A DNA stretch of 64,000 nucleotides from positions 11,619 to 75,618 of the forward strand of contig CAMVDV010000009.1 of NCBI GenBank assembly GCA_947166305.1. Reading direction: 5' to 3'. Below, in pieces: positions 5,039-58,852 of the stretch (positions within the stretch are counted from its first letter, which is position 1; every line of letters begins with the position of its first letter). A program made the position numbers and the translations under genes. Origin of the DNA: an uncultured Prevotellaceae bacterium. Its GTDB lineage: Bacteria; Bacteroidota; Bacteroidia; Bacteroidales; Bacteroidaceae. Below the pieces are notes generated by a model. It saw nothing but the letters and a program-made list of their open reading frames with translations, had not been told where the DNA came from and did no database searches.

Positions 5039-8000
5039 ATGAAGACAAACCTAACATTTGCGAGAATCACAATGGCCCTGGCCATTGCATTGTTCCCGTT
5101 CTTGAAGGCCAATGCCTGGGATTGGGAGTGGACCGACACGTGGGGCGAAGCCGTTGCCTGGTGCGAAGAATGCGGAAACGAGTACATTATCTACGCCGAC
5201 AACTCTGCCGAGGCCGAGTCCGCTGCCGAAGACCTCTTCTGCAGCGACTGCGGCTGCTGCTCGGAAGATGTCAACATGGACTGCTATCGCGAGCACCATT
5301 GCCAGTTCTGCGATGGATGCATCGACAATGGAGAGTACCACGTAGGCATCTACAATCTGTTTGACGAGTACATACACTACGATTGTGCCATCGAACTCAT
5401 CGAATCCGGCGACGTCGATGCCTGCAGCTATTGCCACGAACTCTTCGGCGAAGGCGCCGTAGAGTGTGACTGCGGTGTGGGCGACAAGCACTGTACGGAC
5501 TGCTCCGAATCGAAGTGCGAGAAGTGCGGCAAGTGCTTGCTCATAGCCGGTGACGAGACCGATGCCGCATCGGGCGACGCCTGCATCGACCATGGCATTT
5601 GTGGCGAGTGCATGCCCGATGCCTCTGCCGATGACCAGACGCACTGTCGTATATGCTTCAACTGCGACGAGGACATCTGCGATGAGTGCGGCATGTGCGA
5701 GAGCTGTGCCGTATACGAGGAGCACTGCCCCGAATGCGGCTACTGCTTTGGCGACGAGGTGCAATGGTGCGCCGACGATGGGGAGCACTGCGTCAACTGT
5801 TGTAAAGACAACGGATGGTTATGCCCGGCTTGCGAAAGATGCGTGGACGGCGCAGGCATCTACATTTGCGACGACTGCGGCATGTGCGAAGAGTGCTGCC
5901 TGAGCGAGTCTGAGGGAGAAGGCTGCATACATGGCATTTGCACCGCCTCCTCAGAGTTCTACGACCACCTCTGCCCCGAGTGCGGCGAGTGTCCTCAGGA
6001 CGAGGAATGCGACTACTGCGGTCTCTGCATCAACTGTCAGACTGGCTATCACTGCGAGCACGAGCTCTGTCCAGACGGCTCTGAATGGGACGACCACGTC
6101 TGCCCCGACTGCGGTGAGTGCTTCGACGACGGCGAACTATGCGAGTTCTGCGGCCTCTGCGAAAACTGCCGCGAGCACTGCGAGCACGACTTCTGTCCTG
6201 AGAACGACGATGACAGCGACCACTTCATCTGCAACCAGTGCGGCGACTGCTTCGAGGCCATAGATCGTTGCGACGAGTGTGAGCTCTGTCTCGTCTGCTG
6301 TGACGACAACACTCAGTCCATGGGCTGCGACCACGGCTTCTGCGTCGTGAGCGACGACTTCGAAGAGCATTGGTGCTATGAGGACGATCAGTGCCTTGAA
6401 CTCTGCGAGCACGATCCGGAATGCACCCATTCGAATGTCACCTTGGACTACGCCATCAACGGCAATGCCCACTGGCGTGTCTGCGAAGACTGCGGACTCA
6501 CCGTCGACAAGGCACAGCACACAGGCGGCGAGCCTGTCACGTTGACGTCACCCAACGCTGCCACGCACACCAATGGCACAGCTCAGGTGAACTGCATCGT
6601 CTGCAACTACAAGATGGGCATCGTCCCCATCCCCTACGTTGAAGCACCCGCCGACGGCAGTCCGTACATTATTATACAGCCTACCGACTACACAGGCAAG
6701 ACCAACACCGCAGCATGGAAGGAGGAAGAAGATGACCGCTACGCCACCTTCAAGGTGAAGGCAGGCGGCGAAGGACTCTCCTATCAGTGGTATTGTCGCT
6801 ACGGCACCGGCAGCGGCACTAAACTCAGCGACGACAGCTACACACTAGGCACGCAGACGCCGACGCTCAAGACGCTGGTTTATGGCGAAGACTGCGAAAG
6901 GCAGAACCGCAACATCTATTGTATAGTAAGCAACAGCAAGGGCAGCGTCACCTCCGACGCCGCCTACTTCAAGGCAGAACATGTCTTCGGGCGCTACACC
7001 AAGAAGGACAATGAAACGCACGAGAACCACTGCTTCGGCGAAGGATGCAGCGTCGTGAAAGCCACCTCCAAGCACCGCTTCACGGAGTGGACGCTTGTAC
7101 GTCCTGCCACATCCTCCGAGACAGGATTGCGCGAGCAGCAGTGCATGGACTGCGCTTACAAGAAGAGCGAGAGCATCCCGATGGTTGAGCCCGACCACGT
7201 CCACAGCTACGACATAGCGAAGTACAATATGTCGCAGCACTGGTTCGTCTGCGCCTGCGGCATTGCCGGCCCCGATGCTGCCGTCGACCATGTATTCGAT
7301 GAGAGCGAGGTGGTTACCCCGGCAACCGAGACAAAGAGGGGCGAGAACAGGATTATCTGCAGCGCCTGCGGCTTCTTCAAGACAGAGAAGACCGACAAGC
7401 TGCCGCACGTACATGACTGGTACACGTTCGGAGAAATAAGTATTGTCTTGCCAAACGGTCATTCGGGTCCCGACCCGAAGAAGGGCAGCTACGGACCGAA
7501 CTCGCACACCATCAAGTGCAAGGGCTGCAATGAGAAGAAGACCGACCGACACGTTTGGGGTATGTTTGAATGCATGAGGGATGCCAAGGTTCAAGGCAAC
7601 GACACCATCGCCGGAAGGATTGTGCGCTACTGTGATATATGTTCCTACAAGGAAGAAAAGTTCTATCCCCTTGGCTCATGGCCCATCATGATTGCAGGCG
7701 GCACAGCTTACAAGGGACTCACTAACAGAGCTGGTCAGGTGATAAAATGGATTCCTGCCGCTTATGCCAAGAAGGGCGACAAGATAGAAGTTGCTTACGA
7801 TGCGCTTGCTGCCAGGTCGCTCGGGGACAATCAGCCTCAGAAGTTCGTAGAGTGGGTGGACGGCGCAAGCTGGATCGGCGAGACGAACATTCCTTGGGAC
7901 AATGGTCGGAGTAGCATCGACCTGCCTCGCCTTACCTTCCGCCTGAGCCGTACTACTCGCCGATATGGCTTCACGATGCCCGACGGCCCGGCCACCATCT

Positions 8001-9631
8001 TTGCCGTCACCGAGGCATGCGACCACAGCGGCAGCACGAAGCAAACCGCTCGCGTGGAGCCTACTTGCAGCAGCCACGGCTACGAGCCCAGCACGCTCTG
8101 CGCTGACTGCGACGAGGTTCTTGAGGAAGGCGCACGCATTCCTGCACTTGGGCACGACCTGCCCAGCACGCCTATCGCAGGAACCGAAGTCGTGGAGTAC
8201 TGCACGACATGGGTTCAGGATTATAATCAGTATGGAAAGCCGAACACCGCTACGCACGGCTACACGGGCGACTTCCTCTGCAACCGTTGCGGCCAGACGG
8301 TTAAGGGCGAGCCGACGCCCCTCCGCCATGGGAAACACGACAAGAACAATCAATACATAAGGCCTGGATATATTTGGACTAGCTATCAGAAATGGGTGGA
8401 GGCGACGAATCCCCCCACCTGCACCAAGGCTGGATACGAGGATGATCTCTATTGCATCTACTGCAACAAGCTTGTTCAGAAGGGCGAGCGCGTAGAAGCC
8501 CACGGGCATGACTGGGAGTCATGGTACGTAGTGCGCGAGGCCACGACGAAGGTGAAGGGCATGGAGCAGCGCGTCTGCGCCTACGACTATTCGCACGTCG
8601 AGACACGCATCACTGACTACAGCGGTCCGGACTACACGCTGAAGCCCGAAAGGCAGAAGCTCCGCTTCGAATGGACCTACGGAGAGCCTGTTCCGTCGCA
8701 GACCATCACGTTCAAGTCCACTGGCCGCGACAGCATCGGTTCCATTGAGTATGCCGAAGAGCCCAACGGTTACCTCGACGTGACCGTGGACGGCATGACC
8801 ATCACCGCCAAGCCTAATATCGACAATGTAAAATGGGAACGTAGCGACATGGAATACGACGTAGTAGTGACAGACCTTCTCACACCGGCAAACGAGACCA
8901 TCGAAAGCTTCACTGTTCCCGAGATTAAAGCCACCTGCATCATCAAGAAGACGCCCGAGAAGTACTTGCTGACCGTGGAAGACGGCTTGGCCACGACCTT
9001 CACCATGAGCAGACCCGAGTGGACTTACAGCACGGACAGGAGCAACATGCTGAAGGTGCGCGGCGGTGAGTTCGTAGAGCTGGAGCCTGAGGACGAATGG
9101 AAGCATGACTTCCTGCGTTGGGAGGTGATAAAAGGCTCCGACGACATACAGGAGGATGTGCATGAATCCAGGACGAAGAATACACGCTTCGTCATGTCGC
9201 CTGCCGACGTCACCATCCGCGCCATCTACAGGAAGAACGCTCCGACCATGAAGTTCAAGCAGACGGAAGTGACGGCAAGCGTGGAAGAGCCCTTCAAGGA
9301 GCCTGCACTCATCACGATACCGGGCAAGCTGCCTGTCACCTACAGCAGCTCCGACGAGAGGGTTGTACGGGTGAATCCCAAGACTGGCACCGTATCCTTC
9401 ATGGGAGCCGGCACCGCCGTCATCACGGCGACCTCTGCCGAGACCAACCACTATGCTTCCTCGGCAACGTCCTACACGCTCATCGTGCCGCAGGACTTCA
9501 TCACAGGAATAAAGACCCTCTCCGGCTCTCCCTTAAAGGGAGAGGGCATGTTCAACACTGGCGGCCAGCGCGTCGGCGACAGTTACCGTGGCATCGTCGT
9601 GACGAAGAACAAGAAGGAACTGAAGAAGTGA
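5039..9631 (+). CDS. Secreted 1530-aa cysteine-rich repeat protein with a C-terminal Big_2-like Ig domain and a short T9SS-like tail
   Basis: Signal peptide MKTNLTFARITMALAIALFPFLKANA. About 80 Cys fall in residues 42-462 as CxxC modules, with further His/CxxC modules after that. A Big_2-like segment (VTYSSSDERVVRVNPKTGTVSFMGAGTAVITATS) precedes the tail MFNTGGQRVGDSYRGIVVTKNKKELKK. Confidence 0.85.
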   Translation: MKTNLTFARITMALAIALFPFLKANAWDWEWTDTWGEAVAWCEECGNEYIIYADNSAEAESAAEDLFCSDCGCCSEDVNMDCYREHHCQFCDGCIDNGEYHVGIYNLFDEYIHYDCAIELIESGDVDACSYCHELFGEGAVECDCGVGDKHCTDCSESKCEKCGKCLLIAGDETDAASGDACIDHGICGECMPDASADDQTHCRICFNCDEDICDECGMCESCAVYEEHCPECGYCFGDEVQWCADDGEHCVNCCKDNGWLCPACERCVDGAGIYICDDCGMCEECCLSESEGEGCIHGICTASSEFYDHLCPECGECPQDEECDYCGLCINCQTGYHCEHELCPDGSEWDDHVCPDCGECFDDGELCEFCGLCENCREHCEHDFCPENDDDSDHFICNQCGDCFEAIDRCDECELCLVCCDDNTQSMGCDHGFCVVSDDFEEHWCYEDDQCLELCEHDPECTHSNVTLDYAINGNAHWRVCEDCGLTVDKAQHTGGEPVTLTSPNAATHTNGTAQVNCIVCNYKMGIVPIPYVEAPADGSPYIIIQPTDYTGKTNTAAWKEEEDDRYATFKVKAGGEGLSYQWYCRYGTGSGTKLSDDSYTLGTQTPTLKTLVYGEDCERQNRNIYCIVSNSKGSVTSDAAYFKAEHVFGRYTKKDNETHENHCFGEGCSVVKATSKHRFTEWTLVRPATSSETGLREQQCMDCAYKKSESIPMVEPDHVHSYDIAKYNMSQHWFVCACGIAGPDAAVDHVFDESEVVTPATETKRGENRIICSACGFFKTEKTDKLPHVHDWYTFGEISIVLPNGHSGPDPKKGSYGPNSHTIKCKGCNEKKTDRHVWGMFECMRDAKVQGNDTIAGRIVRYCDICSYKEEKFYPLGSWPIMIAGGTAYKGLTNRAGQVIKWIPAAYAKKGDKIEVAYDALAARSLGDNQPQKFVEWVDGASWIGETNIPWDNGRSSIDLPRLTFRLSRTTRRYGFTMPDGPATIFAVTEACDHSGSTKQTARVEPTCSSHGYEPSTLCADCDEVLEEGARIPALGHDLPSTPIAGTEVVEYCTTWVQDYNQYGKPNTATHGYTGDFLCNRCGQTVKGEPTPLRHGKHDKNNQYIRPGYIWTSYQKWVEATNPPTCTKAGYEDDLYCIYCNKLVQKGERVEAHGHDWESWYVVREATTKVKGMEQRVCAYDYSHVETRITDYSGPDYTLKPERQKLRFEWTYGEPVPSQTITFKSTGRDSIGSIEYAEEPNGYLDVTVDGMTITAKPNIDNVKWERSDMEYDVVVTDLLTPANETIESFTVPEIKATCIIKKTPEKYLLTVEDGLATTFTMSRPEWTYSTDRSNMLKVRGGEFVELEPEDEWKHDFLRWEVIKGSDDIQEDVHESRTKNTRFVMSPADVTIRAIYRKNAPTMKFKQTEVTASVEEPFKEPALITIPGKLPVTYSSSDERVVRVNPKTGTVSFMGAGTAVITATSAETNHYASSATSYTLIVPQDFITGIKTLSGSPLKGEGMFNTGGQRVGDSYRGIVVTKNKKELKK
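9514..9546. repeat. Partial multi-hairpin element (first hairpin) inside the giant CDS tail
   Basis: Reads gaccctctccggctctcccttaaagggagaggg and encodes TLSGSPLKGEG in the same phase as the other coding copies. Confidence 0.75.
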
Positions 9632-54043: not shown

Positions 54044-54045
54044 AT

Positions 54046-54250
54046 TAAAAGGTTAAAAGGTTAAAAGGTTAAAAAGTTAAAAGGTTTTGAGGTTATGGGG
54101 TTATGAGGTTATGGGGTTTTGAGGTTATGAGGTTATGGGGTTATGAGGTTATGGGGTTATGAGGTTATGGGGTTATGAGGTTATGGGGTTATGAGGTTAT
54201 GGGGTTTGAGGTTATGAGGTTAAAAAGTTAAAGGGTTAAAAGGTGAAAAT
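54046..54250. repeat. 205-bp simple-repeat block: (GGTTAAAA)n, then about 14 x GGTTATGR, then (GGTTAAAA)n
   Basis: It fills the entire gap between the BSP-like start codon and the SbcC-like stop codon. It is the longest tract in the window. Confidence 0.95.
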
Positions 54251-54254
54251 GTTA

Positions 54255-56819
54255 TCAGGCGAGGTTTGCTTCGGGGGCGGCGGAGTTGCGTTCGGCGGCA
54301 AGGGCTTTTTCGTGGTCCTCGAGCTGCACGGAGAGTCGCGCTATCTGCATGAGGGTGTCGCTGAGCTGCTTGGAGAGTGTCTGCTGCTTGGCGGCGATGC
54401 TTTCCTGAATGTCGGGCACGGCCACGTTGCAATGCCCGTCTTCCGTGTCGAGGGCAATGAGGCGGCTGTTCAAATCCTCCACCTTGGCTTGGCAGAGCAG
54501 CAGGTCGGTGCTTATCTGCTTGAGCTTGCTGCGTATCTGGCTCCAGTCCTTTCCGTCGGCAAAGACTTCGTCGAGCTCGTTTTGCTGCACGGGCGGATGC
54601 TGAAGGTTGAAGGCATGCATCCAGAGGTCGAGCTTCTCGCCGAGCCCGCTGCGTTCGCCTTCGAGCTGGGCGATGTGGTTCTTGTAGTAGTCGTGCCTGC
54701 CCTGCATGATGTCGTCGGCGTGGCGAATGTCGCTCAGCCGCTCTCGTTCCTCGTCGAAGCGTTCGCGAGTGCCAACGACGTTTTGCAGCCGTTTCTGCAG
54801 GAGCGTCTTTGCGTCGCGTTCGGGAATCATGCGGTCGTAGGCCTTGAGGTTCTCGGCTTTGCGTCCCTCGATGTCTTCGGTGTGCTTCGTGACGGTGGCC
54901 GTGGTGCGCTGGAGCGAGCTGCGGAGGGCTGTCATGCCTTCGAGGTTGGCTTTTTCCACTTGGAGTGCTGCGCTTTCGGCGCTGATTTCCTTCTCCACGG
55001 CCTGCCAGTCGGCTATGAGCTTCTGCATCTTCTCGTAGAGTTGCTCGGGAGCTTTCTGCCAAATGGCGTACCAGTCCTTGAGCGTAATGCTTTGCTGCAT
55101 GTTCTCATAGATGCGGGTGAACTGCTTTGATGTGCTTTCCAGTCGCAAACTCACTTGCTCTACTTCGCGGCTGAGCACTTGGCATCCCGTGTTTAGTTCG
55201 CCCAAACGGACGCCAAGCTCGCTCTTCTTCTGCTCTATCTTCTGCAGTTTTTCGCTGAGGCCTGCGATGCTGCTCTGATGGAAGGTGAATGTCTCGAGTT
55301 CCTTCTCGGCCGTCTCTGCATCTCGGCTGACGTTCTCGATGAACTGTCGCAGCATCGCGGTGCGGGCGTCGAGGTTGGTGCTCTCGGAGCATTCGGCGAA
55401 GGTGGAATCGAGGCTGGCATAGAGTTTCCACTCCTGCACGTCTTCGTTCTGACGGATGCGGATGGTGTTGAGGGCTTCTTCCTCTGCGCTCAAGGCGCCT
55501 TTTCTTGTGGCAAGCTCGACCCGCATCTCGGCAAGCTGCTGAGTGCCGGCGGTGGCTTCGGAGGCAAGGAGTTCGTAGTCCGTCTTCATCTGTCCGATGA
55601 GTTTACTCTGGTCGAGCATGGTGTCGCTGTGGTAGGGATGATGCGTAGCCCCGCAGACTGAGCAGGCCGTGCCTTCCCTCAAGTCTGCGCGAAGCTGTAT
55701 GACATCCTGCCCTTTGCTCAGCAAGTAGGTGTATTCCTTTTCCTTGCATAGCCGATGGGCCTTTCCTACTTCCTCTTCGAGCTGTCGGACGCCGTCTTCG
55801 AGGTGTTGGATGTCGAGCCGCAGGGCCGTCACCTTTCGGCTTTTCTCCTCGATGCTTTCGTATCCTGTGCTGATGCGTTTCCAGAGAGAGAGTGCTGAGA
55901 GGAGCGTCTGCCGTCGGCCTTTGAGCATGAGGGCGCGCTCCTGGAGCATGAGGCCGTCTTGTCCCTGGATGTAGGAGCGGTGCATGGCAAGCTCGGCCTC
56001 CGTGCTTTCGGTCTGCTGCACGAGGTCCTGGAACTGGGCGAATGCTTTGCCCAGATGCTCGTTCTCTTCGTTCTGCCGCTTGATGGCCTGCATCCGCTTC
56101 TGCACAAGCTCGTTGCGGAGCTTGTCGGTCTCTTCCATGCTGCCCAATTGGACGAGGATTGCCTCGCCATGCCTTATCATGTTCTCGTGTATCTCCATGC
56201 TTTGCCTGCGGGAATTCAGGCGGTCGAGCTGTGACTGATGTGCCGCTACGCTCTTTTCCTTTTCGGCGATGAGCGAGGAGAGCGCGTCGGTCTCTTCTTT
56301 TACCTTGTTATAATAGTCATGGAGGAAGGCGGCTTCTATGTCGAGCACGTCGTTTGCGCCCGTAAGCCTGTAGGCTGAGCAGACGGGGTCGAAGGAGTCG
56401 GTGAGGCTCAGCGCGGCGTTCTTGTAGGCTTCGCGTGCCTGCTGCAGCCTTTTCTCTGCGTCGGTCACTTGCTGCCTGCCGCCTTCTGCCTCTCTCTCCA
56501 GCAGGCTCAGCCCGCGCTTGTCTTCGCCGAGCTGACGGGAGAGCACGGAGAGCTTCTGATAGATGCCGTGTATGCCCTCGAAGAGGTCGTAGCGTTCCAG
56601 CATGGCGGCTTCTCTCTCCATGGTCGCCTTCTGCTTGCCGAGCTCGAAGAGGCGGGTCTTCTCGCGCTGCAGGAGCATACTTGTCTCCTGATACCTGCGC
56701 AGCCAGAGGCTTTGTGCCTTGACGCGTTCCAGACTCTCCTCGAGCCCTCGCAGCTTTGTCTCTGCCAGACGCTTGGCATCCTTCACGTGCTCGAGCTGTG
56801 TGCTGTTGAGTATTCTCAT
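54255..56819 (-). CDS. SbcC/Rad50-like coiled-coil protein with a zinc hook but no ATPase head domains (truncated gene or headless paralog)
   Basis: 854 aa, heptad-rich throughout, with CSVCGATHHPY at residues 386-396 (CxxC hook). There is no Walker A at the N-terminus, and no signature or Walker B at the C-terminus. Confidence 0.65.
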   Translation of the reverse strand: MRILNSTQLEHVKDAKRLAETKLRGLEESLERVKAQSLWLRRYQETSMLLQREKTRLFELGKQKATMEREAAMLERYDLFEGIHGIYQKLSVLSRQLGEDKRGLSLLEREAEGGRQQVTDAEKRLQQAREAYKNAALSLTDSFDPVCSAYRLTGANDVLDIEAAFLHDYYNKVKEETDALSSLIAEKEKSVAAHQSQLDRLNSRRQSMEIHENMIRHGEAILVQLGSMEETDKLRNELVQKRMQAIKRQNEENEHLGKAFAQFQDLVQQTESTEAELAMHRSYIQGQDGLMLQERALMLKGRRQTLLSALSLWKRISTGYESIEEKSRKVTALRLDIQHLEDGVRQLEEEVGKAHRLCKEKEYTYLLSKGQDVIQLRADLREGTACSVCGATHHPYHSDTMLDQSKLIGQMKTDYELLASEATAGTQQLAEMRVELATRKGALSAEEEALNTIRIRQNEDVQEWKLYASLDSTFAECSESTNLDARTAMLRQFIENVSRDAETAEKELETFTFHQSSIAGLSEKLQKIEQKKSELGVRLGELNTGCQVLSREVEQVSLRLESTSKQFTRIYENMQQSITLKDWYAIWQKAPEQLYEKMQKLIADWQAVEKEISAESAALQVEKANLEGMTALRSSLQRTTATVTKHTEDIEGRKAENLKAYDRMIPERDAKTLLQKRLQNVVGTRERFDEERERLSDIRHADDIMQGRHDYYKNHIAQLEGERSGLGEKLDLWMHAFNLQHPPVQQNELDEVFADGKDWSQIRSKLKQISTDLLLCQAKVEDLNSRLIALDTEDGHCNVAVPDIQESIAAKQQTLSKQLSDTLMQIARLSVQLEDHEKALAAERNSAAPEANLA

Positions 56820-56974
56820 TTCTTCTGTTCTTCTGTCTTTTTCTTGTTAACCATGAAGACCACTTCCATGCAGCGTTGCTGCTGGAAAGGCCTGCCGTTG
56901 GAGCCGATGCTTTCGGGGGGTGGTCGCAAGGACTGTACCGATGTCGGGAAACGTCGGCTCCTTTCTGTGCGGTG

Positions 56975-56982: not shown

Positions 56983-57080
56983 CGAAAAGATGTGCGAAAA
57001 AGCAAATTTATTGCATTATTTCCGTCCGTCAATGCTTCCGCGGCGTGCCGTGCGAGGAAGATCGGCGCGCCGAGGTCTGC

Positions 57081-57168
57081 AGAACCCTGTAGGGTTTTGT
57101 TTGCAGGGTCATGACCATGCAATTGCAGCATCATGACCCTGCAATTGAATGGTCATGATGCTGCAATC
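57081..57168. repeat. Tandem array, 4 x 22 bp (AGAACCCTGTAGGGTTTTGTTT plus GCANNNTCATGANNNTGCAATT x3)
   Basis: 88 bp in total. Same family as 15068-15155, with the CCCTGNAGGG unit at the opposite end. Confidence 0.9.
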
Positions 57169-57187
57169 AACACGGCACGCGGTGTTG

Positions 57188-58852
57188 TCAGTCGGAAAGT
57201 AGGACGACGCCGGAAAGGGCAGGCAAGCTGATGCGCAAGGGCTGGGCAGAAGTGATGCCGAGGCTCAGCTTGCGGCCGCTCAGGGCATCGGTCAGTCTCC
57301 GTCGCGCCCTTTCGCGGATGCCGGTATGCTCAAAGAAGTGGCGGGGGAGGGAGAGCGATATGTCCTCGTCCGAAGCAGAGAAGTTGCTGACAATGAGTGC
57401 GAACTTCCCTCCAGAGTGACGCACAAATGCGTACTGACGATGGAGGTGTGGGTTGACATACATCAGGTCGTAGAAGCCATCGCCACAGCATGGTTCCTGC
57501 TGCCGAAGCGCGAGGATGCGGCAATAGAGTTCCCTGAGCGCCGCCTCGCCGCTGCTCAGGAGCTTGCCGTCAAAGCGTCCGCCGTTCCTCCAGCGTCGGA
57601 TGGTGGGGACAGACCAGTAGTCGAAGATGCTTGTACGCCCGTCCTGTCCGCTGAAACCCTCGGCGTCCATGCCCCGTTCGCCCAGCTCTTGTCCGAAGTA
57701 GAGCATGAAGGGAGAGGGCATGAGGCTGCTCACGAGTAGTGCCGGGACAGCCGCCTCGCCGCTACCAAGCAGGAAATTGCTTGCCAGACGCTGTTCGTCG
57801 TGGTTCTCAAGGAAGTTGAGCATCTGCCCTCGGATATCGTCCACTGCCTGCCAACAGCCTGTGATGCTCTGTGCCGACTGCCCCCTTGTCACGGCCAGGA
57901 GCGTGTCGTAGAGCCCCACCTTATCGTAGAGGTAGTCGAAATGGCCGCGCCGTATGTAGTCACGATAAAGGGCTGGATTATAGACTTCGGCAATGAAGAT
58001 GATGCCCGGGAAGCGCTCCTTCACCTGTGGCAACGCCCACTCCCAGAACTCCACGGGCACCATTTCTGCCATATCGACACGGAATCCGTCGATGCCCTTC
58101 GCTGCCCAGTGGAGCAGAATGTGCAGCATCTTGTGCCATGTGGCAGGGGTGGGGGAGAAGTGACCCGTTCTTCCTCCCACGACATCGACGCCATAGTTCA
58201 GCTTAACGGTCTCGTACCAGTCGCATCGCCCCGGGCGTGGAGAGAAACAATCGTTGCCCGTGGCGCGTGCCGGAGCCTCGGTGTAGGTGCTGCAGGGCAC
58301 GATGTCGTCGAGGCAAAGGCTTTGGCCGGGAAGGTAGTAGAAGTTGTTCTGCGGCGAGAAGGCACAGGACTTGTCGTCGTCCTCGCCAAGGTCGCGTACG
58401 TCGGAGGGCTTGGCAAGCGAGCGATACTGCCGTGATACATGGTTGGGCACGAAGTCGATGATGACTTTCAGGCCTGCCTTGTGCGTCCTCTCCACGAGCA
58501 GTTCGAACTCATGGACACGCCTCGATGGGTCGTGGGCAATGTCGGGATCGACATCATAGTAGTCTCTGATGGCATACGGGCTGCCGGCTTCGCCCTTCAC
58601 CACATCGGGGTTGTCGATGGGAAGGCCCAGGGCGGAGTGGTCCGTCCGCGTGGCATGTGCTATGATGCCTGTGTACCATATATGCGTACAGCCAAGGCTT
58701 CGGATATTTTCCAATGCCTTGGCTGTGAAGTCCTGCATCGTTCCGCACCCATTCTGCTGCTTCGTGCCGAAGGGGACAAGGCCCTTCCTGTCGTTGCCAA
58801 AGAGCCGGGTGAAGACTTGATAGACGGTTGGGGACAATTTGCTATACGTCAA
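57188..58852 (-). CDS. GH13 alpha-amylase family protein (no signal peptide seen)
   Basis: DFVPNHV, GFRVDMAEMVP, FIAEVY, FLENHDEQR. Confidence 0.85.
   Translation of the reverse strand: MTYSKLSPTVYQVFTRLFGNDRKGLVPFGTKQQNGCGTMQDFTAKALENIRSLGCTHIWYTGIIAHATRTDHSALGLPIDNPDVVKGEAGSPYAIRDYYDVDPDIAHDPSRRVHEFELLVERTHKAGLKVIIDFVPNHVSRQYRSLAKPSDVRDLGEDDDKSCAFSPQNNFYYLPGQSLCLDDIVPCSTYTEAPARATGNDCFSPRPGRCDWYETVKLNYGVDVVGGRTGHFSPTPATWHKMLHILLHWAAKGIDGFRVDMAEMVPVEFWEWALPQVKERFPGIIFIAEVYNPALYRDYIRRGHFDYLYDKVGLYDTLLAVTRGQSAQSITGCWQAVDDIRGQMLNFLENHDEQRLASNFLLGSGEAAVPALLVSSLMPSPFMLYFGQELGERGMDAEGFSGQDGRTSIFDYWSVPTIRRWRNGGRFDGKLLSSGEAALRELYCRILALRQQEPCCGDGFYDLMYVNPHLHRQYAFVRHSGGKFALIVSNFSASDEDISLSLPRHFFEHTGIRERARRRLTDALSGRKLSLGITSAQPLRISLPALSGVVLLSD

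Follow-up and report, generated by a model that had tools for sequence, protein, structure and literature searches.

In Rad50 and in E. coli SbcCD the zinc hook serves as a module for constitutive dimerisation (PMC6969161), and the ABC ATPase RloC also carries a Rad50-like zinc-hook coiled coil (PMC2610378, PMC3458546). What the arm and the hook of Rad50 and SbcC contribute beyond holding two ATPase heads together is a long-standing question. Here we describe a gene from an uncultured Prevotellaceae bacterium that encodes a protein of 854 amino acids (aa), consisting of a long coiled coil with a CxxC hook and no ATPase head at either end. The gene lies in a stretch of 64,000 nucleotides (GenBank assembly GCA_947166305.1, contig CAMVDV010000009.1, positions 11,619 to 75,618; hereafter the window), a segment of a Bacteroidales chromosome that also encodes SprA, many glycoside hydrolases, queC and queF. 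Comparison with its relatives indicates that the protein very probably belongs to a headless family descended from the ~1250-aa SbcC, the bacterial Rad50, of Prevotellaceae. The best overall explanation, to which we give a probability of about 0.6, is that this SbcC-derived family acts as a hook-dimerised scaffold or tether.

The first-pass annotation of the window, made from the letters alone, had described an 854-aa open reading frame (ORF) with hook cysteines Cys386 and Cys389, arms of about 385 and 465 residues, and no ATPase head. The ORF, the Pfam search and the structural model confirmed this description. The two cysteines (nucleotides 55664-55653) belong to a motif that reads CSVCGATHHPY(H), with 385 residues before the hook and 465 after it. 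No Pfam domain was found in the 854-aa protein; in particular, there was no match to AAA_23, AAA_29, SMC_N or SbcC_Walker_B. The Walker A, signature and Walker B motifs were absent in a pattern check, and a PADLOC scan of the protein gave no match. NCBIfam returned weak, sub-threshold matches to the coiled-coil parts of SMC/Rad50 models only, and none to head regions.

A single-chain AlphaFold2 model, run with a 67-sequence alignment, had a mean predicted local distance difference test score of 83 and was helical from residue 6 to residue 845, with eight short breaks. The sole long loop of the model, residues 369-398, holds the hook and lies between the two arms. The C-terminal arm is ~70 residues longer than the N-terminal arm owing to loop insertions (471-482, 578-590, 661-682, 741-758 and 791-803), and the helical lengths of the two arms are equal once these loops are discounted, so the two termini should pair with each other where the arm has its base. 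The best Foldseek matches in the PDB were the arms of MukB, condensin, JetC, Smc5/6 and Rad50, with template modelling scores of 0.1-0.2; these are generic SMC-type arms, which support the fold class and do not tell the families apart. A profile of the family had no match among PDB sequences at E<=1.

The same family profile was searched against 1.84 billion representative proteins. The top matches were ~50 clusters of 836-937 aa that aligned end-to-end. Next came proteins of 1205-1289 aa from Bacteroidaceae, Prevotellaceae and Alloprevotella, named AAA family ATPase or exonuclease SbcC, which matched profile positions ~20-875 with E values from 1e-108 to 1e-28. In these longer proteins the match extended from residues ~200-230 to ~1050-1080, leaving ~200 extra residues at each end, and the end extensions are the AAA_23 and SbcC_Walker_B domains, with Walker A, LSGGE and DEGF intact in the active ones. 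One active sbcC (locus L087) immediately follows an intact sbcD. Aligned with the full-length P0174, the window protein covers residues ~215-1078, between the end of the N-terminal lobe and the start of the C-terminal lobe. Its N-terminal arm corresponds to P0174 residues ~215-609, and its C-terminus is ~15-20 residues short of the position at which the C-terminal ATPase lobe starts in full-length relatives.

In a neighbour-joining (NJ) tree of the arm columns, the window protein fell within the headless clade. This clade was monophyletic in 85 of 100 bootstraps; it was nested among active SbcC proteins, and P0172, P0174 and P0188 formed its sister group in 75 of 100. It is well supported that both ATPase half-domains were removed cleanly at the head/arm boundaries and that the linkage to sbcD was lost. 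The remaining module is the whole antiparallel arm, of ~385 paired residues and ~55 nm, with the CxxC hook at its tip. One of the two readings offered by the first-pass annotation, that of a real headless hook-plus-coiled-coil protein, is supported by these data, and the profile matches and the NJ tree now place the protein phylogenetically as a derivative of SbcC. Of the features that define SbcC/Rad50, it has the CxxC hook at the apex, the long antiparallel coiled coil and the sequence homology, and it lacks the N-terminal Walker A/Q-loop lobe, the C-terminal LSGGE/Walker B/D-loop/H-loop lobe and the sbcD linkage. The protein should not be classed as an SbcC ATPase but as a headless derivative.

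In the hook, residues C386, C389, G390, H393, H394, P395 and Y396 are invariant in the 67-sequence alignment, which includes bona fide SbcC. The motif, C[SP]VCGATHHPYH, is nearly identical between headless and active relatives, and these seven residues do not vary across headless, degenerate and active SbcC relatives. In a BLASTP comparison with E. coli SbcC, whose hook is CPLCGSTSHP, the best segment aligned hook-to-hook (RADLREGTACSVCGATHHP vs RAQLQAGQPCPLCGSTSHP). This alignment and the invariance of these residues show that the CxxC is no chance occurrence. Two further hook residues, His393 and His394, do not vary among the headless or the active relatives of this lineage, and His397 hardly does (THHPYH); E. 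coli SbcC has one His at the hook position that carries THHPYH here.

The headless protein is not confined to the window. Searches of the protein database gave 379 homologues. The best 120 of these 379 are annotated 'hypothetical protein' and come from metagenome-assembled genomes (MAGs) of Bacteroidaceae/Prevotellaceae, mostly from ruminant gut; the complete ones among them are 855-918 aa long, none has a Pfam domain, and their identity ranges from 99% down to 43%. A known family with a different function, for which the first-pass annotation had left room, did not appear, the relatives being either hypothetical or given COG-style labels such as 'SbcCD ATPase subunit'. When one genome per species was scanned, 119 headless loci came up, including Paraprevotella at L058, L083 and L084, with identity to the window protein down to 31%. 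Another carrier of the gene is GCA_017445035.1, whose copy is P0013. Comparisons of loci rest on the 80 of these that were kept, nearly all of which span almost the whole query, with a few cut by contig ends. Nearly all members of the family come from MAGs or metagenome contigs. They share a near-invariant block, EKEYTYLLSKGQ..IQLRADL.EG..CSVCGATHHPYHSDT, which the window protein also carries.

Selection on the gene was estimated against P0001, a 99%-identical homologue, also of 854 aa, which lies on an independent metagenome contig (L089) with the same upstream sequence. The two genes differ by 30 synonymous and 8 non-synonymous codons, which gives a ratio of non-synonymous to synonymous substitution rates (dN/dS) of 0.075 (dN 0.0043, dS 0.057). 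That the headless gene is under purifying selection and represents a real, conserved family of Prevotellaceae is well supported by these comparisons.

Neither heads nor a nuclease partner were found near the gene. The 64-kb window contains no sbcCD genes. A tblastn search with the N- and C-terminal head lobes of P0174 detected no head remnants anywhere in the window, which extends the earlier statement that there were none upstream of the gene, and a search with four SbcD proteins, including closer and degenerate ones, detected no SbcD-like sequence. The absence of an adjacent sbcD, also noted earlier, thus holds, the flanking genes being alpha-amylase-like upstream and BSP-family downstream. 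Within ±8 kb of the headless gene in the 80 loci, tblastn found neither head remnants nor SbcD.

Many relatives carry an N-terminal element that the window protein does not. A peptide of the form M-x-[FLI]-[FW]-x-[KRS], followed by a low-complexity linker of 30-70 aa, was present in 26 of 50 representative clusters and in 67 of 106 close homologues; the window copy lacks both and begins directly at M-RILN. A short out-of-frame ORF (ATG GTT AAC AAG AAA AAG ..., translated as MVNKKKTEEQKK followed by a stop) overlaps the headless start codon through an ATGA. It resembles the MNFFGKK... N-terminus of most homologues, and the arrangement is identical in L089. This likeness suggests that the window lineage may have lost the peptide and linker by deletion or frameshift. 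To date this loss, the 5' end was aligned at the DNA level with two relatives, but the sequences had diverged too far for the alignment to be legible.

The SbcC relatives of the headless family point to repeated loss of catalysis. At least two lineages appear to have discarded the heads together with sbcD, and several more appear to have let the ATPase motifs decay, and in some cases the SbcD motifs too, while selection kept the arm and the hook. ATPase motifs are eroded in eleven clusters of full-size proteins; P0172, for instance, has lost its Walker A loop and carries LSSSA in place of LSGGE and FEYS in place of DEGF. Degenerate forms grouped with active ones in the NJ tree at several places, namely P0172 with P0174 (92% bootstrap), P0228 with P0195 (94%), and P0212, P0218 and P0230 with P0224 (99%), and the degenerate full-size SbcC forms arise independently. 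The P0212 cluster has 82 members.

The upstream SbcD-like gene was retained as an ORF in every degenerate case that could be checked. The SbcD beside the partly eroded P0230 is intact, that beside P0172 (L086) has lost motifs II, III and V, and that beside P0179 (L088) has lost all metal-binding motifs; beside P0193, motif V is lost in the visible part of a gene cut by the contig end. Examples of mutated SbcD motifs in the degenerate pairs of L086, L088 and L092 are DWHLG to SWCLG, GNHD to GACD and GHIH to SRVG, and these pairs look like catalytically dead SbcCD complexes. Between active pairs of SbcC proteins, head identity was 56-78% vs 35-42% for the arm, whereas between degenerate pairs it was 27-44% for the head and 38-44% for the arm, a comparison that leaves out the very diverged P0232-P0219 pair. 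The conservation of the arm was 0.296 in headless proteins vs 0.254 in active SbcC, with the same hot spots.

A second headless family consists of P0235 and 32 further clusters (33 in total; P0235 and P0499-P0530) of 847-882 aa. Its nearest relative is the active SbcC P0222 (87% bootstrap, 40% identity), and it arose independently. No Pfam domain was found in it, and its loci have no sbcD or head remnants nearby. Three further SbcC relatives, P0240, P0242 and P0221 (974-1049 aa), are partly truncated. The N-terminal ~90-125 aa of these proteins are not head sequence and start with MK[ILF].FF or MKLFSF, and a stub of the C lobe is left in two of the three; the P0242 locus (L095) lies among genes for leucine-rich-repeat proteins, with no sbcD. 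The repeated and independent erosion of ATPase and SbcD motifs, with arm and hook constrained, suggests that in these bacteria the arm with its hook serves a purpose of its own on which selection can act.

How the protein would work is a more tentative matter. We put at somewhat below even odds the specific mechanism in which it is a coiled-coil scaffold or tether that dimerises through the zinc hook and works independently of ATP. Two chains would be joined at the hook by four cysteines around one zinc ion, as in Rad50/SbcC, and the hook-joined dimer would form a long, ATP-independent rod or V shape with arms of ~55 nm. The conserved arm base, in which residues ~1-100 pair with ~760-845, would bind other components, as would, in most members though not in the window copy, the N-terminal M-x-F-F-x-K-K peptide with its disordered linker. 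The role of the protein would then be structural, that of a tether or scaffold, and not enzymatic. A broader proposal, which we regard as possible and would not yet favour over its negation, is that the SbcC/Rad50 arm and hook are autonomous, for example in DNA tethering or scaffolding, that they need neither ATP hydrolysis nor a nuclease, and that this was exposed repeatedly in Prevotellaceae whose genomes are without active SbcCD. The indirect evidence leans towards carrier genomes without active SbcCD, because three active sister clusters stand against ~50 headless ones and because other lineages abandon catalysis.

Several points weigh against the scaffold or tether. The window copy lacks the N-terminal peptide and linker, so this element cannot be essential. 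The synteny of the 80 loci revealed no operon partner, and the neighbourhood yields no functional partner. The trees are NJ distance trees on fast-evolving coiled-coil columns, with 75-85% support at the key nodes. The extra histidines of the hook mean that the zinc site might differ from the classical intermolecular Cys4 hook; THHPYH might permit an intramolecular Cys2His2 site instead. Zinc binding, dimerisation and any binding partner are all things that we infer, and the role may depend on a canonical SbcCD elsewhere in the carrier genome.

The last of these points leads to the alternative that survives best, although we consider it unlikely: the protein would regulate, or poison as a subunit, a canonical SbcCD whose genes lie elsewhere in the same genome, in line with the suggestion of the first-pass annotation that it might pair or interfere with a full-length SbcC. 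It would hetero-dimerise with SbcC through the hook or zip along its arm, and the resulting one-headed or blocked complexes would tune or inhibit the cleavage of hairpins or ends. There is a precedent in an engineered human Rad50 fragment, which carries the hook without the ATPase and Mre11-binding region and dominant-negatively disrupts MRN (PMC4782334), and the near identity of the hook in headless and active relatives fits such a role. The gene also lies at a different locus from the sbcDC operons of its relatives, as expected of a duplicated paralogue, but a paralogue retained alongside the active gene is not expected to leave an active sister group of only three 50%-identity clusters vs ~50 headless ones. 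No active SbcC or SbcD was found in the window or within ±8 kb in the 80 loci, and the loss of SbcC ATPase and SbcD nuclease motifs in independent lineages points to abandonment of the enzyme rather than to its regulation.

More doubtful is a scaffold that serves a nuclease without an ATPase. Here the arm base would bind the C-terminal helix-loop-helix of an SbcD/Mre11-type nuclease, or of a dead descendant encoded elsewhere, and tether it as a dimer at the end of the rod. Mre11 and SbcD attach to the arm base in the Mre11-Rad50 and SbcCD structures, and the arm base (the first ~100 and last ~90 residues) is as conserved in headless as in active proteins. No SbcD-like gene was found near any headless locus, even with closer and degenerate SbcD queries, which speaks against this alternative, although degenerate SbcC keeps an SbcD-like neighbouring ORF after its catalytic motifs have died, suggesting that there the interaction is under selection.

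The first-pass annotation had also considered a doubly truncated pseudogene with a surviving long ORF, and had allowed for an assembly or sequencing error that hid adjacent heads. We now regard a pseudogene whose ORF chanced to survive, or heads missed through an artefact of assembly or gene calling, as highly improbable. Both catalytic lobes are indeed missing, an out-of-frame remnant of what may be an older N-terminus lies upstream, and a microsatellite abuts the stop codon. A pseudogene is refuted by the dN/dS of 0.075, by the same architecture in more than 100 species-level genomes at identities down to 31%, and by conservation of the arm at least equal to that of active SbcC, with the hook region invariant. 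An assembly error is excluded by the 80 independent loci, which have intact ORFs of the same extent and no head remnants in any frame of the flanks, and an independent contig gives the same 854-aa ORF and upstream sequence. Pseudogene and artefact were rejected on these grounds. The idea of a generic coiled coil unrelated to SbcC, with a chance CxxC in mid-protein, could draw on the lack of above-threshold Pfam and NCBIfam matches, the lack of a PDB profile match at E<=1 and the low-scoring, generic SMC-type Foldseek matches, but it was rejected as barely credible in view of the whole-arm profile match to bona fide SbcC (E down to 1e-108), the shared extended hook and the hook-to-hook alignment with E. 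coli SbcC.

The genomic surroundings of the family vary. In 61 of the 80 loci hisS lies divergently upstream of the headless gene, ~330 bp away; genes seen downstream in this set include AraC-type, peptidase M49, DNA-alkylation-repair, Fur and purA genes, and recQ converges on the 3' end of the headless gene in 19 of 80. BSP, queC and queF follow the headless gene downstream in the window and in its closest relatives, and the upstream side of the window is rearranged, with the alpha-amylase-like gene in place of hisS. The headless locus differs from the sbcDC operon locus of relatives, where sbcD immediately precedes active sbcC. Coordinates are collected in Table 1.

Table 1. Positions of the headless gene and its parts in the window, of nearby elements, and of related loci on other contigs.
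Feature	Position	Strand	Evidence or remarks
Headless gene, probable SbcC derivative, 854 aa	54255..56819	(-)	ATG 56819-56817, TGA 54257-54255; ORF call, 99%-identical homologue P0001, dN/dS, no Pfam domain
N-terminal ascending coiled-coil arm, residues 1-385	55665..56819	(-)	AlphaFold2 helices 6-66, 68-140, 144-216, 218-284, 289-368; P0174 boundary mapping; family profile match
Zinc-hook motif CSVCGATHHPYH, residues 386-397, predicted hairpin apex	55629..55664	(-)	Invariance; E. coli SbcC alignment; AlphaFold2 loop 369-398
C-terminal descending coiled-coil arm, residues 398-854	54258..55628	(-)	AlphaFold2 helices 399-470, 483-577, 591-660, 683-740, 759-790, 804-845; P0174 boundary mapping
Candidate Bacteroidetes-type -7 promoter box TAAATTTG	57003..57010	(-)	~185 nt upstream of start codon; read from sequence
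Short out-of-frame ORF	56816..56854	(-)	ATGA overlap with headless start codon
22-mer array	57101..57158		Region 57090-57190
Microsatellite of 8-mer/16-mer units	54045..54254		Directly after headless stop codon
1530-aa ORF	5039..9631	(+)	No Pfam match at E<=1e-5
Degenerate sbcD-sbcC pair, locus L086	4842-6011 + 6001-9639		Overlapping intact ORFs with mutated motifs
Degenerate sbcD-sbcC pair, locus L088	4737-6011 + 6001-9744		Overlapping intact ORFs with mutated motifs
Degenerate sbcD-sbcC pair, locus L092			Overlapping intact ORFs with mutated motifs
Second headless family, locus L093	4328-6871		Between nrdD + 161-aa ORF and GH20 gene + mutS
Second headless family, locus L094	5554-8097		Between nrdD + 161-aa ORF and GH20 gene + mutS
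Partly truncated SbcC relative P0242, locus L095	8001-11024		Among leucine-rich-repeat protein genes

The upstream spacer of the headless gene is 368 bp long and contains both the 22-mer array and the possible -7 box that the first-pass annotation had pointed out. The box fits TAnnTTTG, which we take to be the Bacteroidetes -7 consensus, and is a candidate only. The array is a nested palindrome, with a minus-strand hairpin of -45 kcal/mol (z = -5.4 vs shuffles) that lies a few bases past the stop codon of the alpha-amylase-like gene (57188). This position makes a terminator or an extragenic palindrome likelier than a part of the headless gene's promoter, and the array looks like an element of that kind, outside this promoter.

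On the other side, the microsatellite noted earlier after the stop codon is present and directly abuts it. The spacer between the headless stop codon and the ATG of the BSP-family gene (54043) consists wholly of (CCTCATAACCCCATAA)n with flanking TTAAAAGG-type units, and the 16-mer has a single site in the window. In the 99%-identical relative L089 the same spacer is only ~50 bp long and lacks the microsatellite, suggesting that the array in the window is a recent expansion or that it was collapsed in the L089 assembly. Being next to the BSP gene, the microsatellite could change BSP expression. Elsewhere in the window, Pfam gave nothing at E<=1e-5 for a 1530-aa ORF; clear family matches were obtained for all nine other large ORFs that were scanned.

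The comparative genomics of the headless family is solid as judged from sequence, and its biological meaning hinges on co-occurrence with active SbcCD and on biochemistry. The family amounts to a natural deletion experiment, in which the heads and the nuclease are gone, or dead in sister lineages, and arm and hook appear to have been selected in more than 100 gut and rumen species, at least two times. If the carriers are without active SbcCD, they would show directly that a Rad50-type arm has a role apart from catalysis, and would offer a simple natural system in which to study how hooks dimerise, how arms zip and what the arm base contacts. If they keep an active SbcCD, the protein would modulate an Mre11-Rad50-type complex with the hook only, the first natural case known to us. 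In both cases, a defined origin is gained for a large family whose members are called 'hypothetical protein' or, wrongly, 'SbcCD ATPase subunit'. A full-text literature search found no description of a natural headless SbcC or of catalytically dead SbcCD pairs.

Among known systems, the arms of the SMC family (MukB, condensin, Smc5/6 and JetC) and RloC resemble the headless protein in their long antiparallel coiled coil, and in RloC the likeness extends to a CxxC hook. All of these retain a working ABC ATPase head, and SMC proteins dimerise by a hinge domain, not by a zinc hook. The engineered Rad50 hook/coiled-coil fragments (PMC4782334) are likewise hook-bearing coiled coils without heads, but they are artificial and act as dominant negatives on endogenous MRN, and are not an evolved gene.

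The second headless family (P0235) has the same hook-plus-arms architecture, no Pfam domain and no sbcD nearby; it differs in its independent origin, its N-terminus (MQQN-YIT...), its hook (CPVCGSAHHPY) and its neighbourhood (nrdD ... GH20, mutS). The eroded full-size SbcC proteins (P0172 with L086; P0179 with L088; P0193; and the clade of P0212, P0218 and P0230) belong to the same lineage and have also kept hook and arm and lost catalysis. The head folds and sbcD-like ORFs remain in them, whereas both are wholly lost in the window protein. The closest likeness is to the ~1250-aa SbcC of Prevotellaceae itself (for example P0174 and P0321), in which the arm is homologous over its full length, with the hook C-x-V-C-G-A-T-H-H-P-Y-H, the same arm interruptions and the same ~55 nm. 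Compared with that SbcC, the headless protein is without the Walker A lobe, the signature/Walker B/H-loop lobe and an adjacent sbcD, it is encoded at another locus, and most headless members have gained a short N-terminal peptide on a disordered linker.

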